Shown here: in pieces, positions 20,989 to 42,627 of the stretch
How the letters are laid out: each line of letters begins with the position of its first letter
How positions within the stretch are numbered: position 1 is the stretch's first letter
DNA from: Ostreococcus lucimarinus
Lineage: Eukaryota
Assembly: GCA_000092065.1 (NCBI GenBank)
Contig: CP000596.1
DNA length: 64,000 nucleotides
Strand: one strand, 5' to 3'
Translations under genes and position numbers: made by a program
The notes under the pieces: generated by a model
What the model was told of the DNA's origin: nothing
What the model saw: only the letters and a program-made list of their open reading frames with translations
Database searches by the model: none

Positions 20989-22557
20989 ATGGAAACTTTC
21001 GCGTCGCACGCCCCGCCCGCCGCGCACGAGGACGCGATCGCGAGATGCGAGATCTTAGAGCGTGAACTTCGAGCGTTACAAGCGGCGGAGCGGGCGTCGC
21101 GCGCGCGAGAGACGGCGCTGGCGTGCGAACTGGAGACGCGGCGGCGACGCGCTCGAGCGGGACGGCGAGCGACGGAGACGGATGACGACGATGAGAGCGA
21201 ATACGGCGGACGTCGCGCGATCGGTGCGTCAGCGAGCGTGCCGTTGAGAGAGTACGAGGGTCTACGCGAGCGGTGTGAGGCGGCGGAGGCGCGGGCGAGG
21301 CGGGCGACGGAGACGCTCGCGCAAGTCGCCGCCGAACGCGGGGAGATGCGAGAGAAAGCGGCGAGCGAAGCGGTTGAAAACGCGGTGAGAGAGGCCGAGG
21401 AGAAGTGGCGAGCAGAAATGGAAGAGTTGAGTCGAGCGGCGCGGGCTGACGCGAGGGCACTGAGTTCGTCGCGAAATAGAGCGGGCGAACTCGCGGCGGA
21501 GCTGCGCGAGGCGAAGGCGCTGCGAGACGAGTGGCAGAAGCGAGCAGAGGCGGCAATGGAAACGAGCGAAGCGACGTCTGATGCGCTTGAGCGCATGCGT
21601 AAGGCGATCATAGAGAGTGAGAATATGGGTTTAAGCGAGCGAAGTGTCAAAGACGCGGAGAGGATTCAAAAATTGGTCAAGCAGTTGGCGACGACGCAAG
21701 AGCAGCTCGCGATTGCGCAAAGGGAGGTCCACAAACGCGATTCAGCGCGGGATAGGCTCGTGTTCGATGCTCAAAAAGCGCAAGAACGCGTCAAGGAGAT
21801 TTCGTCGCGTTTGGCCGAGGTGCAAGCGGAACGCGAACACGCGAAGGAAACCGTTTCTGTCGAACGCGCTGAGAAGGAACGCCTGAACGGTGAGGTGGTA
21901 TATTTAAGAGGCGAGTTGGACCGAATTCGCTCGGAAAACGAAAATGAAATGAGCGATTTCACAGATTGGCGCACGCAGACGGAAAAAACGTACAATCGTG
22001 AGCTCAATCAGGCGCGCAAAGACGCGGCGCGCCACGCGATGACTGTACGTAAACTTCAGCAAAAATTGGCGCAAGGCAAGGACGCGAGCGACGCCCGTAA
22101 AATCGCGCAGTTGGAGCGCGAGTGCGCCACCGTTCGTGAGACAGTGCGTGAGTTGGTCACCGAGCGCGACGCGTTGGCGCGACGCGTCCAGGATTTGACA
22201 TCATTCCGAAGCGACGCTCGGCATCAAAAGGGCTCTGCGAACGCGCGTCGAGCCGTCGTCGCGCACGACGACGACGAGGTCGACGACAATATCGACCCAG
22301 GCGCGTTTGGCGTCGACGACGACTTAGATATCTCCGGCGAAGACGACGAAGACGACGACATCTTCAACGAGGCGACCGAAAATCTCTTCAAAGAAACCGT
22401 CGACGATTTCTTCGAAGACGACGACGCCGAAGACGCCCGCCTCGAAGCCGCGCACGCGCACGCGCACGCCCTCGCCAAGCGCCTACAGTCCATAGAATCC
22501 CGCGCCGTGGCATTCCTAGGCGCCCGCGACGATTTCTTCGAAGACGACGATTTGTAA
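20989..22557 (+). CDS. hypothetical long coiled-coil protein
   Basis: 522 aa dominated by heptad-like E/R/A/L-rich sequence, with an acidic DDDxxFFEDDD C-terminus. The stop codon overlaps a TGTAA motif. Confidence 0.35.
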   Translation: METFASHAPPAAHEDAIARCEILERELRALQAAERASRARETALACELETRRRRARAGRRATETDDDDESEYGGRRAIGASASVPLREYEGLRERCEAAEARARRATETLAQVAAERGEMREKAASEAVENAVREAEEKWRAEMEELSRAARADARALSSSRNRAGELAAELREAKALRDEWQKRAEAAMETSEATSDALERMRKAIIESENMGLSERSVKDAERIQKLVKQLATTQEQLAIAQREVHKRDSARDRLVFDAQKAQERVKEISSRLAEVQAEREHAKETVSVERAEKERLNGEVVYLRGELDRIRSENENEMSDFTDWRTQTEKTYNRELNQARKDAARHAMTVRKLQQKLAQGKDASDARKIAQLERECATVRETVRELVTERDALARRVQDLTSFRSDARHQKGSANARRAVVAHDDDEVDDNIDPGAFGVDDDLDISGEDDEDDDIFNEATENLFKETVDDFFEDDDAEDARLEAAHAHAHALAKRLQSIESRAVAFLGARDDFFEDDDL

Positions 22558-33619: not shown

Positions 33620-33737
33620 GGTGATTCGGCGAGCGCTCGGCGTCGCGATGTGACGACGCCGCGACGACGACGAAGGAAGGCGCGAATGAATGAAGGCGCG
33701 AAGGCGCGAATGAATGAAGGAATTAAAGACTAGGAAT

Positions 33738-38138: not shown

Positions 38139-38415
38139 TGCAACCACCGGGAATCGAACCCGGGTCTGGTTATTAGGAGAAAATCGACGTTAACTATGGG
38201 TCAGTTTCCATTTTCCATTTATATCCTTTCGAGCTGTTTATCGAGCTTTTCGGACGGAACACTCACCTCCTGCGCGCTGCTATTTTGTATGCAGTGACGG
38301 CTGTTCGCCGTCAGGAGACCATCTCGCCCGAGCTCGACCTCGGGCGACGACTGGATCATACGCTGCTGAAAGTGCCGATTGGCAGGCAGGTATTCTACCA
38401 CTAGACCATGGTTGC
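38139..38415 (-). tRNA. trnG-GCC: tRNA-Gly(GCC) gene interrupted by two ~100-nt introns
   Basis: Minus-strand exons GCAACCATGGTCTAGTGGTAGAATACCTGCCTGCCAA (38415..38379) + GCAGG(AG) (~38273..38267) + (AG)ACCCGGGTTCGATTCCCGGTGGTTGCA (~38167..38139) assemble a 71-nt cloverleaf. It is near-identical in architecture to plant tRNA-Gly-GCC: acceptor GCAACCA/TGGTTGC, anticodon stem CCTGC/GCAGG, loop CTGCCAA, T-arm CCGGG-TTCGATT-CCCGG. Confidence 0.65.
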
Positions 38416-38600
38416 CTAGGTCTTCCGCACGCTTGACTACGTGCTTCGGATGTTAGGAACAGCGATAAACTTCAAGTCGGAGAATGCGAACGTCAATGCG
38501 ATCGCGGTGTTACGGGTTGGTGGTAATTACGAAATCATTGATTTCGTAGTAATAATAGCAAAATTCTGGACTAACTATTGTGATTCATCTCTTCATCGGC

Positions 38601-38624
38601 CTAAATACACAGAAAACAAAACGA
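38601..38624 (+). repeat. 24-bp direct repeat copy 1 (ctaaatacacagaaaacaaaacga)
   Basis: Exact 24-mer also present at 41306..41329. Lies 60 bp upstream of the ATG at 38684. Confidence 0.8.
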
Positions 38625-38683
38625 ACCGGGTGCGCTCGGTGAAGTCGGACCGCCGATTGGTTGGTTGGTTGGTTGGCCGCGCG

Positions 38684-39064
38684 ATGAGATTAGTTGTCGG
38701 CGCGCGCGTGGACGGATGGACGGACGGACGGAGAGACGCGCCCTTCGCGATGGGTCGACCGTACGCGTGGAGACGCGGCGCCGGCGCGAGCGCGCGACGA
38801 CGAAAGCGCGGCGACGGCGACGACGACGACGACGAGCCCGGACCGGTGATGCGTCGGTTCACCGAACTCGCGCGCGCGCATCGATCGGCGGAGATGGTTC
38901 GAGCGGCGGCGGCGGTGGCGGCGGCGGCGAACGCGACGAGCGACGAACGCGAAGAGACGCGGCGCGTGCGCGTCGAGCGGACGCCGAACGGCGAAAGCGT
39001 CGTCGTCATGGACGACGCGAAGGAAGGCGATGATGGTGACGACACGGCGGCGAAGAAGACGTAG
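38684..39064 (+). CDS. hypothetical small acidic protein
   Basis: 126-aa ORF from ATG 38684 (MRLVVGARVDGWTDGRRDAPF..), D/E-rich. No family recognised. Confidence 0.3.
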   Translation: MRLVVGARVDGWTDGRRDAPFAMGRPYAWRRGAGASARRRKRGDGDDDDDEPGPVMRRFTELARAHRSAEMVRAAAAVAAAANATSDEREETRRVRVERTPNGESVVVMDDAKEGDDGDDTAAKKT

Positions 39065-39130
39065 AGCGAGGTCTCGGACGACGATCGATCGAACGCCGGC
39101 TGCTGAAAAACGTTCGCCGCGCGACGCGAA

Positions 39131-39186
39131 ATGATTCATTCATTCATACATACATTCATTCATACATTCATACATTCATAACGAAC
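39131..39186 (+). repeat. (CATT/CATA)n microsatellite, TTCATTCAT-type
   Basis: gattcattcattcatacatacattcattcatacattcatacattcataacg read directly, ~70 bp 3' of the stop at 39064. Confidence 0.85.
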
Positions 39187-39276
39187 AAAACGCACAAAAT
39201 TGTTGTTATAACAAGGACAACGTGATTAGATAAATTAATTATGTAGGACATCAACGTTCAACGTTCTTTAACTCTG

Positions 39277-41190
39277 TCACGCCGCCGTCGGCGTCGACGA
39301 CGTCGACGCCGCGGTGAGCGCGGCTTCGACTTGCTCGCGAAGTTCTGCTGCCTCTTCGGCGCTGCGACCGTACTTAACCTTCATCTGCCAGGTGATGGCT
39401 TTGCCGCACCGCTCGACGCTCTCGCCCTGATCCCAGAGCTGCATCGCTCGGGCGACTGCTTTCTTTTGCGCCTCGAAGAGCTCCGGATCCGTCGGATTGG
39501 CGTCGGCCTCGACCTGCGCTTCAGTGTAACGAGTGCAAATGTCGTGACTGTACGCGGCGACGGTGGACGAAATACCTGTTGGATCGAACAGCGCCGCGAC
39601 TTCGGCGGCGGCTCTGATGCCGTCAGCCTCCGTCTCGACGGACATCATGTCCTCGATGCCCCCGGCGATGCCGTCGGCCGTGCTGACGACCTGATCGATG
39701 TTGTCGTAGGCGTCCTTCAGCTCTTCCGCAGTTTTCTTAACCGCTTTCGCGGTGTCACCGATCTTGTCAGCGGCTTTGGCGCATTTCGTCGCGGTTTTGA
39801 CTCCGATCTTAGCCCCCGTCGTCGCGCCAGAGCTCGCACCGAGCGTGGCGAAGAAGGCAACCATCTCGAGCGGGCCCATGATCTGGTCGGTAACGACCAG
39901 CGCGCACGTGGCGTCGTCGGCGGCGGCACCCATGCCGCATTCGACCCATCGATTAGCGTTCACTGTAGGAGGTTCGCCCCAGCAGACGAACGCCGCGCCG
40001 ACGAATCCCTCTTTGCAAGGCTCGTAGCAGAGGCCGGCGTCGTACTCGTAGCCGGGGGGACAGGTCGCCGGCTCCATGCCTGGGGAGAGGTGAGTGTGTT
40101 TCGTGCAGCTCGGGGCGATGCCGCCCTCGTAACCTTGATCCTGGCAGTCCATCGTGCAAATATTTGATCCAAAGTTGCTGTATCCGCTCCTGCACTTGTC
40201 GTAGCACAGACCGAGGTAGTCCTCCTTGCCTTTTTTAGTGCAAAGATCTCCGCCACACCGCACACTGAACGTGGACCAGCTCCATTCGCACTCGATGGTA
40301 CCGACGCCGCGACCGTAACTCGCGTCGGGGTTGGAACATAACAATCCGTGGTCGTCCCAACCGCTCGAGCACGACTGATGACAGTCGTAGCCAAAGCGAT
40401 AATAACCAGCGCCGAAGTTTGAGCACTTGTCGTAGCAATACAAACCACCGGCGATGATTTCTTTTTTGCCATCGTCGCCGCAGTACTGCGGAATGATGCC
40501 GTCGCGCGTGTACGATTCGCGCCAGCAAAATCCCGAGCCTTCGTCGACTTCTTGGGCGTACTCGCCGATGATCTCGCTCGACCAACTAGTGACGGTGCCC
40601 GCGTGTTCGACCACGTTTCCTACCCAGCCGAAATTGAGTCCGAGCGCGGCCGTGTCGTTCGACGCTTTACGGCGTTTGTCGATTTTCTTACGCTTTCGCG
40701 CCGTCTCCTTCTCCCGGTCGCGCGCCTCCGCGACGCGCCTCTCGAGCGCCGCCTGAACCATCGATTCCTTCGACGCGCACGTGCCATTCGTCGCGACGGC
40801 CCTCTCCGCCGCGGTGAGATCGGACAACTCAAAGGTCGACTTTCGCAGCGCGCGCTCCGCCTCCGCTTCGACGTCCGCAGCCTTCGCCGTCATGACGGCG
40901 ATCGTCTCGTTGAGCATCGCCTCTCGCTGCCTCGCGTTCACGGCGGCGCCCAATCGCGCGCGAGGCGTCGGCGTCGGCGTCGGCGTCGCGTCGACCGCGC
41001 GCGCGACGCGCGGCGTCGTTCGCGTCGTCGGAATCGTCGTCGTCGTCGTCGTCCCGCGTCGACCCGCGAGCGCGACGACCGCGCACGCCGCGACGCCGAG
41101 CGCGACGACCGTCGTCGTCCCGGCGTCGACCGCGCGTCGGTCCCGTCGCGATCGTCGCAACAGCGGATCGCGCTCGCCCGGCTTCGACAT
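39277..41190 (-). CDS. novel type-II membrane protein with coiled-coil stalk and three Cys-rich G-L-C-Y-x2-C repeats
   Basis: ATG at 41188-41190 (MSKPGERDPLLRRSRR..), then TM VVALGVAACAVVALAG, a T/P-rich linker and a coiled-coil region. Repeats: GLYCYDKCSNFGAGYYRFGYDCHQSC, GLCYDKCRSGYSNFGSNICTMDC, GLCYEPCKEGFVGAAFVCWGEP. C-terminal K/A/T-rich region. The ORF-track start at 41277 is a GTG. Confidence 0.5.
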   Translation of the reverse strand: MSKPGERDPLLRRSRRDRRAVDAGTTTVVALGVAACAVVALAGRRGTTTTTTIPTTRTTPRVARAVDATPTPTPTPRARLGAAVNARQREAMLNETIAVMTAKAADVEAEAERALRKSTFELSDLTAAERAVATNGTCASKESMVQAALERRVAEARDREKETARKRKKIDKRRKASNDTAALGLNFGWVGNVVEHAGTVTSWSSEIIGEYAQEVDEGSGFCWRESYTRDGIIPQYCGDDGKKEIIAGGLYCYDKCSNFGAGYYRFGYDCHQSCSSGWDDHGLLCSNPDASYGRGVGTIECEWSWSTFSVRCGGDLCTKKGKEDYLGLCYDKCRSGYSNFGSNICTMDCQDQGYEGGIAPSCTKHTHLSPGMEPATCPPGYEYDAGLCYEPCKEGFVGAAFVCWGEPPTVNANRWVECGMGAAADDATCALVVTDQIMGPLEMVAFFATLGASSGATTGAKIGVKTATKCAKAADKIGDTAKAVKKTAEELKDAYDNIDQVVSTADGIAGGIEDMMSVETEADGIRAAAEVAALFDPTGISSTVAAYSHDICTRYTEAQVEADANPTDPELFEAQKKAVARAMQLWDQGESVERCGKAITWQMKVKYGRSAEEAAELREQVEAALTAASTSSTPTAA

Positions 41191-41305
41191 CGCGACGGAC
41201 GGCGTCGCGGGGTGGCGATCCGCGTCACCAGGCGGTCGGGCGGCCAACGGCCGCAGGCTGGACAAAACGCGCGCCACGTTTGTAAGCTCATGGGTCTAAA
41301 TGGTA

Positions 41306-41329
41306 CTAAATACACAGAAAACAAAACGA
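41306..41329 (+). repeat. 24-bp direct repeat copy 2 (ctaaatacacagaaaacaaaacga)
   Basis: Exact match to 38601..38624, in the same + orientation, ~117 bp beyond the minus-strand ATG at 41190. Confidence 0.8.
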
Positions 41330-41397
41330 GGTTGCACACTCGATGCACTCGATGAATGAAATGAATGAACTAGATGAACGCGAAACGATTCACTCAT

Positions 41398-42597
41398 TCA
41401 TTCGCCCCCGACCGCGTCGAAATCGAAATCTACGCCGACGCGCTCGCACGCTCGTCTGAAGTCGTCCGGCACCGGCGCGACGATCCGGGGCACGCCGGCG
41501 AAATCTTTCGCCGGGAAGCGAAGCGTCCACGCGTGCAGCGCGTGCCTGTCGACGACGTCGGCGTCGAGGCAGCCGTACGCGGCGTCGCCGACGATCGGTA
41601 GACCGATCGCGGCCAAGTGGACGCGAATCTGATGCGTGCGTCCGGTCTTCGGGCGACACCGCACGAGGGCGTGTCGGCGATTTCGAGCCACAATCGTCCA
41701 CTCCGTCGACGCCGGTTTGCCGTCGGCGGAGGACGTCTCGACGAAGAACCTCGCGCCGTCGTCGCGCTTCGCCAACGCGAGATCTATCGTCCCGGACGAC
41801 GCTCCGCCTCCCGAAACATCAAATTCATCGCACCGACACAGCGCCAAGTACGTCTTCTCGACCTCGCGACGCTCGAACGCGCCTTGCGCGCGCGCCGCCG
41901 CCTTTGCGTTTTTGCACACCACGAGCGCGCCCGACGTCTCTAAATCCAATCTATGCGCCACGTACGGCACCAAACTCGCCCCGAGCACGACGTTCGACGC
42001 CAACGCGCCGTCGTGCGCGTCGACGAGTCGTCGCCGCCACCGCGCGACGACGAGCGACGCCGCGCTCGAATCCGCCACGCGCGACTCGGGCGTCGACGCC
42101 GTTCCCGCGCGTTTATTCACGCACGTCATCTCCTCGTCCTCGTGCAGTATCTCCAGCGCCTCCACGTCCTCCGTCTCGCACGCCAATCCCATCGGCGTCG
42201 CCTCGACCTCGCGTCGTATCGTTCGCGCGACGCTTTCGGCGTCGACGCGACCGACGCGTCTCGCCACCTCGCTCGCGCGCGTCGTCGCCCCCCGCGCGCC
42301 TCGCGCCCACCCGAACCGCCACGCCATGATCTCGTGCGCTCGAGATCGTTCACCGTGCCTGCGAACGACGCTCGCGCGCAGGATATCGCGCTCGCGCGCC
42401 GCGAACGCGTCGCCGCGCAGCGCGTCCGGCGCGCACAGACTCAGGTGTCGCGTCTTCGCATTCTCCAGCCCGCAGCACGGACACCGCGGTCGCGGCGCGG
42501 CGTCGCGTCGGCGCGTCGCGTCGGCGCGCGTCGTTTCTCGTCGCGCGTCGCGCCGGCGCGGTCGCGTCGCCGCGATCGTCGCGCGACGCGCCGCCAT
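41398..42597 (-). CDS. RluA-family pseudouridine synthase
   Basis: HRLDLETSGALVVCKNAKAA.. catalytic Asp motif and ..KTGRTHQIRVHLAAIGLPIVGD.. The N-terminal region has CPCCG. Start approx. at cat 42595-42597, about 30 bp from the ATG of the divergent downstream gene. Confidence 0.7.
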   Translation of the reverse strand: MAARRATIAATRPRRRDARRETTRADATRRRDAAPRPRCPCCGLENAKTRHLSLCAPDALRGDAFAARERDILRASVVRRHGERSRAHEIMAWRFGWARGARGATTRASEVARRVGRVDAESVARTIRREVEATPMGLACETEDVEALEILHEDEEMTCVNKRAGTASTPESRVADSSAASLVVARWRRRLVDAHDGALASNVVLGASLVPYVAHRLDLETSGALVVCKNAKAAARAQGAFERREVEKTYLALCRCDEFDVSGGGASSGTIDLALAKRDDGARFFVETSSADGKPASTEWTIVARNRRHALVRCRPKTGRTHQIRVHLAAIGLPIVGDAAYGCLDADVVDRHALHAWTLRFPAKDFAGVPRIVAPVPDDFRRACERVGVDFDFDAVGGE

Positions 42598-42627
42598 CCG
42601 ACGGCGCGTCACTTTTTGACGCATTCG

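Follow-up and report, generated by a model that had tools for sequence, protein, structure and literature searches.

Integrative elements that lie beside tRNA genes and carry att direct repeats are familiar from bacterial genomic islands, and tRNA genes are likewise targeted by the yeast Ty3 and Dictyostelium TRE elements. Compact bidirectional promoters occur in the short intergenic regions of gene-dense genomes; in the picoalgae, to our knowledge, few promoters have been defined. The small outlier chromosome of Ostreococcus tauri is hypervariable and low in GC, and natural populations of related picoalgae harbour strain-specific genes, tandem duplications and translocations on such outlier chromosomes (PMC5498103). 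The present analysis concerns a 64-kb stretch of the Ostreococcus lucimarinus genome (contig CP000596.1 of assembly GCA_000092065.1, hereafter the window), in which a perfect 24-base direct repeat brackets two convergent genes, A and B, next to a split tRNA-Gly(GCC) gene. Taken as a whole, our data make it reasonably probable that the 24-mer pair forms the invariant core of an approximately 110- to 130-base module from upstream of gene A, which was duplicated in the slot between an RluA-type pseudouridine synthase gene and the tRNA gene and is functional in a promoter-like manner.

The 24-mer (CTAAATACACAGAAAACAAAACGA) occurs exactly twice in the window, at 38601-38624 (DR1-L) and 41306-41329 (DR1-R), both on the + strand, and no third copy was found there at three or fewer mismatches. 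None of 100 dinucleotide shuffles contained two matches to it. A survey of exact repeats of at least 16 bases returned it as the only long one outside (CGA)n-, (CGAT)n- and (CG)n-type sequence and a pair at 22401/22527, and it is also the sole exact repeat of at least 20 bases besides GC-rich simple sequence and this in-gene pair; a chance origin is ruled out by the shuffles and the repeat survey together. The window has the appearance of a gene-dense eukaryotic genome (63.4% GC) with AT-rich gene boundaries, and both copies sit in such AT-rich islands, bracketing gene A on the + strand and gene B on the - strand. DR1-L begins 184 bases from the 5' end of the tRNA gene (38416), with which it does not overlap, and 125 bases separate its end from the gene A ATG. 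DR1-R is likewise upstream of its gene, at a distance of 115 bases from the gene B ATG, but is oriented oppositely to gene B. Thus, the original prediction was borne out in its description of two identical, co-oriented copies at AT-rich boundaries around a convergent pair, in its estimate of about 190 bp to the tRNA gene, and in its dismissal of chance identity, while it missed a weak homology of approximately 14 bases that continues past the 24-mer (tgcgctcggtgaag versus tgcactcgatgaat) and a second repeat pair described below. The arrangement is also present on an independent 427-kb contig (L036), which is collinear with the window at 99.55% identity over 14 kb and keeps both 24-mers. Our literature search found no publication on the repeat. 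The in-gene pair mentioned above likewise matches exactly over 24 bases in direct orientation (CGACGATTTCTTCGAAGACGACGA; 22401-22424 and 22527-22550, copies 126 bases apart). It lies inside a long + strand open reading frame (ORF; 20989-22554) and is probably an internal protein repeat.

The right-hand 24-mer is embedded in a longer module (41252 to 41377, + strand), which consists of an upstream segment, Rup (CGCAGGCTGGACAAAACG...GGTCTAAATGGTA), the 24-mer itself and a microsatellite-like stretch (cactcgatg / gaatgaa). When copies of this module were aligned, they were found to start with CGCAGGCTGGA(C)AAAACG and to run via GGTCTAAATGGTA and the 24-mer to an end of the cactcgatg type (41252 to approximately 41376 in the window). 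The haplotypes compared here are contigs from short-read metagenome assemblies, referred to by L numbers. Both L031 and L035 have copies of the right-hand module in front of gene A at 84-90% identity, L035 as a tandem pair, and in L035, L031 and L021 the right-hand module corresponds to the gene A upstream region at the left site. Homology therefore extends beyond the exact repeat in other haplotypes, and the markers DR1 and DR2 (see below) are collinear. This context fits the earlier suggestion of a segmental duplication remnant, and these sequence comparisons give good support to the view that the repeat arose by duplication.

At the left site of the window haplotype, the place of Rup is taken by an 80-base AT-rich segment, Lup (38521 to 38600, + strand), which holds the palindrome ACGAAATCA-T-TGATTTCGT and proved unrelated to Rup upon alignment. 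Lup is confined to window-type contigs and to L022 and L034; L035 and L021 have Rup in this position, following a conserved block upstream of the tRNA gene. As the left 24-mer is preceded by Lup in place of the corresponding part of the module, the window shows a bare identity of 24 bases. On the other side of DR1-L is the gene A leader (38625 to 38749, + strand; ggttggttgg..., GC-rich, with (ggac)n), which shares homology with the leaders found downstream of the module in L031, L035 and L024. An alternative in-frame start ATG lies in this leader at about 38684, and P0061 is annotated from this upstream ATG.

Gene A was found on many metagenome contigs approximately 99% identical to the window (L001-L010), and every one of these that spans the sites keeps both 24-mers. 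Several other arrangements were recovered. In L022 and L034, which are independent of each other and 90-96% identical to the window (gene A dS 0.14), the order is tRNA, 24-mer and gene A, followed by a jump from 39173 to 41401, so that gene B and the right 24-mer are missing and a single copy of the tail repeat is present. L035, from the clade of L022, reads tRNA, conserved upstream block, Rup-24-mer, Rup-24-mer, leader, gene A and gene B 3' flank, with a tandem period of 110 bases; in L004, the right module is tandemly duplicated with a period of approximately 112 bases, and L031 reads Rup-24-mer, leader and gene A. In L021, which is 99% identical to the window, the left 24-mer is deleted between two 'gctc' microhomologies, and gene A, gene B and the right copy are retained. 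The order in L024 is gene B, divergent module, leader, a 443-aa low-GC ORF and RluA, its leader being 76% identical to that of L031; a Cys-rich ORF of 975 aa, also low in GC, is present in L024 as well, and the contig has junctions that lack homology. L022 and L034, as well as L031 and L035, support each other as independent contigs.

The extra ORFs (L024, 3103-4698 and 7007-9934, both on the - strand; L031, 178-984, + strand) have a GC content of 0.49-0.52 versus 0.64. The 443-aa ORF extends to 531 aa if counted from the furthest upstream ATG, and the 975-aa ORF has many CxxC pairs. Neither gave an above-threshold match in Pfam or PDB; the only Pfam match of the 975-aa ORF was a GATA finger below threshold, and an HNH-like motif seen in it by eye was rejected, as neither database supported it. 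No close viral relatives of the two ORFs were found with a method that detects close relatives only.

The unit is polymorphic and relatives differ at the site, in keeping with the spirit of the original prediction, but the 24-mer does not mark the limits of what is polymorphic. The presence or absence of gene B is bounded by a second direct repeat, DR2 (acgcgaaaYgattcaYtcattca), the copies of which match at 21 of 23 positions. DR2-L (acgcgaaatgattcattcattca; 39124 to 39146, + strand) lies in the gene A 3' tail, and it is here that the gene-B indel begins on the left when the window is compared with L022 and L034. DR2-R (acgcgaaacgattcactcattca; 41378 to 41400, + strand) overlaps the RluA stop codon (41398-41400); homology to the window resumes there in both L022 and L024, and in L024 the tail of the 443-aa ORF abuts it exactly. 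DR1 and DR2 stand in the same order on both sides (38601 then 39124; 41306 then 41378). Short tandem motifs of the TGAATGAA / TTCATTCA type were also observed just 3' of stop codons at convergent gene ends, in the window (39130-39180, 41350-41404, 20064, 33684-33711 and 44227) and in relatives, including the RluA 3' ends of L015 and L018; gaattgatgaattgatgaattga in L015 is one example. Such motifs are length-polymorphic and may be a common 3'-end or terminator feature of the group.

The 24-mer differs from its surroundings in its lack of variation. Among seven distinct module copies, 0 of its 24 columns vary, compared with 18 of 54 upstream (Fisher p = 8e-4) and 26 of the next 30 downstream (p = 5e-7). 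Within the window clade, neither 24-mer has a variable site (0/24), whereas variable sites account for 7% of Rup, 13% of the gene-B 5' region, 42% of the microsatellite-like stretch and 2.6% of gene B. DR1-L is invariant in 12 window-type contigs and in the clade-2 contigs L022 and L034, and is absent from L021; DR1-R has no variable site in 10 contigs, in which its flanks are polymorphic. Other short blocks of the module (CGCAGGCTGGA and GGTCTA-ATG) are conserved too, the 24-mer being the longest invariant one. The variability of the flanks against an invariant 24-mer argues for selection, and is in line with the earlier proposal that the repeat may be a shared cis-regulatory element. Lup likewise has no variable site in 11 contigs. 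The whole stretch of Lup, left 24-mer, leader and gene A (38521-39064) shows five variable sites in 544 bases among 11-13 contigs, the corresponding values for gene B and the left neighbour being 2.6-3.4%; this low variation is compatible with a young or recently swept Lup haplotype.

From these observations, we infer both an order of events and a promoter function. In the simplest history, the entire gene-A unit, from module and leader to gene A and its 3' tail, would first have been duplicated in tandem, which would yield both repeat pairs in the same order. In the window haplotype, the second unit would have lost its leader and ORF and become an empty 'ghost' unit (41252-41400), gene B being situated between the units, its 5' end adjacent to the module of the second. 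The part of the left module upstream of the 24-mer would later have been swapped for the unrelated 80-base AT-rich segment, with the consequence that only the 24-mer and approximately 14 weakly similar bases match between the sites. The identity of the 24-mer would have been kept through function, as the AT-rich, TATA-like core (CTAAATAC, which reads TATTTAG on the other strand) of a compact promoter; such a sequence is AT-rich in a GC-rich genome. Judged by its sequence and setting, the 24-mer is most likely a compact core promoter element, probably bidirectional, of which the left copy would serve gene A and the right copy gene B and, in L024, the 443-aa gene on the opposite side. The module was always observed next to the 5' end of one gene or more, and in L024 next to those of two divergent genes; the distance from the 24-mer to the gene that follows it is approximately 200-330 bases for gene A (L031 and L035) and for the 443-aa ORF (L024). 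Both the constraint relative to the flanks and the location at gene 5' ends are in agreement with a core promoter.

Several points weigh against this explanation. The case for promoter function is made from position and conservation, and the copies are oppositely oriented relative to genes A and B, so that bidirectional action would be required. In addition, the 24-mer is confined to this locus in the metagenome collection and is not a general regulatory motif: a scan with the 24-mer preceded by G or T gave no match, and the 20-mer core matched 15 loci, six of which represent this locus and nine unrelated contigs. Eight of the nine are AT-rich chance matches, and the other, L032 (67% GC), agrees at 22 of 24 bases, a two-base extension that is expected by chance among nine random 20-mer matches; the occurrence at many unrelated promoters that had been considered earlier was accordingly not seen. 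Gene conversion among the few copies could have contributed to their identity, and the edge of the 24-mer could be a preferred breakpoint, as unrelated sequences begin directly after it in four contexts. The junction of L031 falls inside DR2, and L022 has 11 extra bases that are unexpected from a simple crossover. Finally, parts of the L021 and L024 contigs may be chimeric. L021 ends in an inverted duplication (palindrome) of the module, which may be an artefact, and L024 contains 391 bases 93% identical to L015, which is from another species.

The alternative that survives best, although we regard it as unlikely, is that the repeat is a neutral, functionless relic of the segmental duplication, the identity of which was preserved by chance or by short-tract gene conversion. 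The duplication origin itself, the restriction of the 24-mer to this locus and the internal-deletion variants of the orphan gene A, which hint that the whole unit may be weakly constrained, would all suit a relic. However, an absence of variable columns between flanks that vary at 18 of 54 and 26 of 30 positions, across diverged copies, is not readily expected of neutral sequence, and at the left site the flanks are unrelated and yet the 24-mer is identical, which leaves little homology for conversion. The conservation of CGCAGGCTGGA and GGTCTA-ATG is, moreover, reminiscent of a multi-site regulatory region.

We consider it more doubtful still that the module and DR2 are preferred recombination boundaries, i.e., a hot spot of cassette exchange in which the 24-mer is kept as a recognition or break site. 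In different haplotypes, gene A, nothing, or the 443-aa low-GC gene is indeed enclosed by one pair of borders, the 5' module with its leader and the 3' DR2; four unrelated sequences start right after the 24-mer and two begin right before it, the module duplicates in tandem, and the junctions in L024 are complex and without homology. Nevertheless, just three 'cassettes' are involved, no recombinase or nuclease gene was identified, some of the variants are possibly assembly artefacts, and selection that preserves the 24-mer amid flanks that turn over would produce sharp edges as well. The bolder version of this idea, that the slot is a eukaryotic gene-cassette site at which unrelated ORFs are swapped in wild populations between a fixed promoter module with leader and DR2, appears improbable; if it were true, incoming genes would gain a ready-made promoter.

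An action of the 24-mer in RNA, as a 5'-untranslated region element, a small-RNA target or a part of a structured non-coding RNA, is very improbable. If transcription starts upstream, the 24-mer would indeed be contained, in the same orientation, in the 5' leaders of gene A and of the 443-aa gene; however, neither strand of the module folds stably (z-scores -0.8 to +1.6), Rfam gave no match with an E-value below 0.03, and with respect to gene B the 24-mer is carried by the opposite strand. The core promoter reading remains the one that we favor.

The slot in which the duplication took place has fixed edges. On the right is the RluA-type pseudouridine synthase gene (41398 to 42624, - strand; PF00849 is recorded for its homologues), and on the left the split tRNA-Gly(GCC) gene (38140 to 38416, - strand), adjoined by the tRNA-upstream block (38417 to 38520; ...cttcggatg...gttacgggttgg), which is visible in L015, L016 and L018 and aligns in L021, L022 and L035. 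RluA homologues approximately 50% identical are found in a conserved block of the order transketolase/E1, CP12, dCMP deaminase, X, RluA ... tRNA ... Whirly. The RluA-tRNA-Whirly arrangement is kept in L016, L017 and L018, and the L015 contig ends at the tRNA gene, before Whirly. The distance from the RluA stop to the tRNA 5' end is 390 bases in L018, with no gene; 887 bases in L016 and L017, with a 199-aa membrane-like ORF; 1576 bases in L015, with an ankyrin-repeat gene; and 2981 bases in the window, with genes A and B. The surrounding block is conserved in relatives, but the content of the slot differs, and synteny does not hold for the region as a whole. No 24-mer within six edits is present in L015, L016 or L018, and no module-like blocks were found in these relatives.

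The exons of the tRNA-Gly gene are 97-100% identical in L016 to L018, whereas the intervening sequences are not; in L015, the 5' exon is recognisable (78% over 73 bases). Three exons are present in the window and L016 (11974-12291), and four in L018 (11513-11999), L021, L022 and L034. One intervening sequence is at the canonical anticodon-loop position. That in the variable loop starts with GTGAGT or GTACGT and ends with CAG, and the extra one, which follows ...GAATACCTG and is polymorphic within the species complex, starts with GTACGT and ends with CACAG; read from the sequence, these two have spliceosome-like GT..AG borders inside a tRNA gene. The split gene was not detected by ARAGORN, with its intron option included, or by Rfam.

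Gene A (38750 to 39064, + strand) encodes a 104-aa acidic orphan protein, with homologues only at 86-100% identity and a dN/dS of approximately 0.33 versus clade 2, based on 21 changes. Its population variants (P0063-P0066) have internal deletions between short direct repeats (e.g., gagacgcgg) or fusions to other frames, which suggests weak constraint on an orphan gene or frequent slippage in GC-rich repeats. Gene B (39277 to 41190, - strand; 637 aa) comprises an N-terminal transmembrane segment, a Thr/Pro-rich stalk, a predicted long helical region, a Cys-rich domain (approximately 220-430) and a helical C-terminal part. Of its 44 homologues, which come without exception from metagenomes or MMETSP, the closest one beyond the species complex is 74% identical; dN/dS is approximately 0.3, and dS approximately 0.55 to the nearest other species. 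As stated in the original prediction, neither gene belongs to a recognisable family: no Pfam match was obtained for either, and gene B had no PDB sequence match and, when its AlphaFold model (pLDDT 55) was searched with Foldseek, no fold match. The comparison of GC3 proposed at that time gave values (0.81 for gene A, 0.77 for gene B) like those of the neighbours and other long window ORFs (0.64-0.83), which is indicative of native genes, and a foreign origin by composition was rejected. Viral homologues of the Cys-rich protein of gene B, a search for which had also been proposed, were not found, with a method that detects close relatives only, and the 24-mer is absent from viral contigs.

Gene B homologues (BLASTP 50-74% identity) were also located in four other neighbourhoods, a different one in each of four lineages (L011, L012, L013 and L037), with the gene orders ADH, B; Exo_endo_phos, B, SPOUT; 149 aa, B, 177 aa, ATG13; and ABC1, B, Ras, and without flanking repeats around them. 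Because the homologues occupy four other neighbourhoods and their pairwise identities resemble a species tree, gene B has changed place repeatedly in evolution, and its arrival at this slot is specific to the species complex. For a gene without a recognisable mobility function, gene B relocates unusually often, while the RluA-Whirly block stays syntenic.

Although the direct repeats around lineage-specific genes adjoining a tRNA gene, the empty (L018, 390 bases) or otherwise occupied (ankyrin-repeat gene in L015, 199-aa ORF in L016) slots of relatives and the four other neighbourhoods of gene B might recall a site-specific two-gene insertion beside the tRNA, with attL/attR-like scars or a long target-site duplication as its traces, this proposal is the least credible of all and was rejected, as three of its defining features fail: the gain or loss of gene B is bounded by DR2 (39124/41378) and not by the 24-mer, with L021 keeping genes A and B without the left 24-mer; no empty site with a single 24-mer exists among L015, L016 and L018 or any other retrievable contig, L022 and L034 having a single copy but keeping gene A; and no integrase, transposase or other recombinase domain was detected by Pfam in genes A, B or the extra ORFs, to which may be added that the repeat belongs to a longer module also found in tandem, lies 184 bases from the tRNA gene and not inside it, and encloses genes of native GC3 for which no viral relatives were found. 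A transposon with a target-site duplication was likewise rejected, as the homology exceeds 100 bases in other haplotypes, no transposase is present, and the gene B homologues elsewhere lack flanking repeats.

Our analyses imply that the 24-mer repeat is an ordinary product of segmental duplication and is not to be classed as a mobile element or an att site. A few kilobases of standard-GC DNA beside a tRNA gene carry different genes in every related species examined, and the same locus occurs as several structural haplotypes in one marine species complex, which differ, among other things, in whether gene B is present. By comparison with the repeat, the hypervariability of the locus and the odd splitting of the tRNA gene are the more interesting findings; the invariant block of 24-26 bases is, in turn, a concrete candidate promoter element in picoalgae.

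Among the known systems compared, LTR/TRIM-type retroelements share with the locus direct repeats of approximately 110-130 bases around an internal region; the interior here, however, consists of two convergent host-like genes. No TG...CA ends, no primer-binding site or polypurine tract where these would be expected, and no target-site duplication or gag/pol remnants were present in the alignments inspected, and this class was rejected. Like tRNA-adjacent integrative elements, the locus has lineage-specific genes beside a tRNA, flanking direct repeats and a slot content that differs between relatives, but it has no recombinase or transposase, the repeat is off the tRNA, the indel boundaries are elsewhere, and the repeat is part of a longer, tandem-occurring module. 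It resembles the hypervariable regions of Mamiellophyceae (PMC5498103) in its strain-specific genes, tandem duplications and translocations and in the low-GC genes of some haplotypes (L024), and differs from them in its standard GC content (63%), its position inside a syntenic block and the small extent of the variable part, a few kilobases.

With compact bidirectional promoters, the module has in common an AT-rich, TATA-like block approximately 115-125 bases from two start codons and, in L024, a position between divergent ORFs; unlike them, its invariant block of 24-26 bases is far longer than a typical binding site and belongs to a single locus. The locus represents, on a small scale, the low-copy direct repeats that result from tandem segmental duplication, followed by gain or loss between short repeats. 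Such repeats differ from those described here in scale, which is tiny in this case (repeats of 24-130 bases, a unit of 2-3 kb), and in that one unit has no gene body, the unrelated gene B lies between the units, and some junctions do not fit unequal crossing-over. They are nevertheless alike in that two collinear repeat pairs are present, the haplotypes differ by the DNA between the DR2 copies, and the modules occur in tandem.

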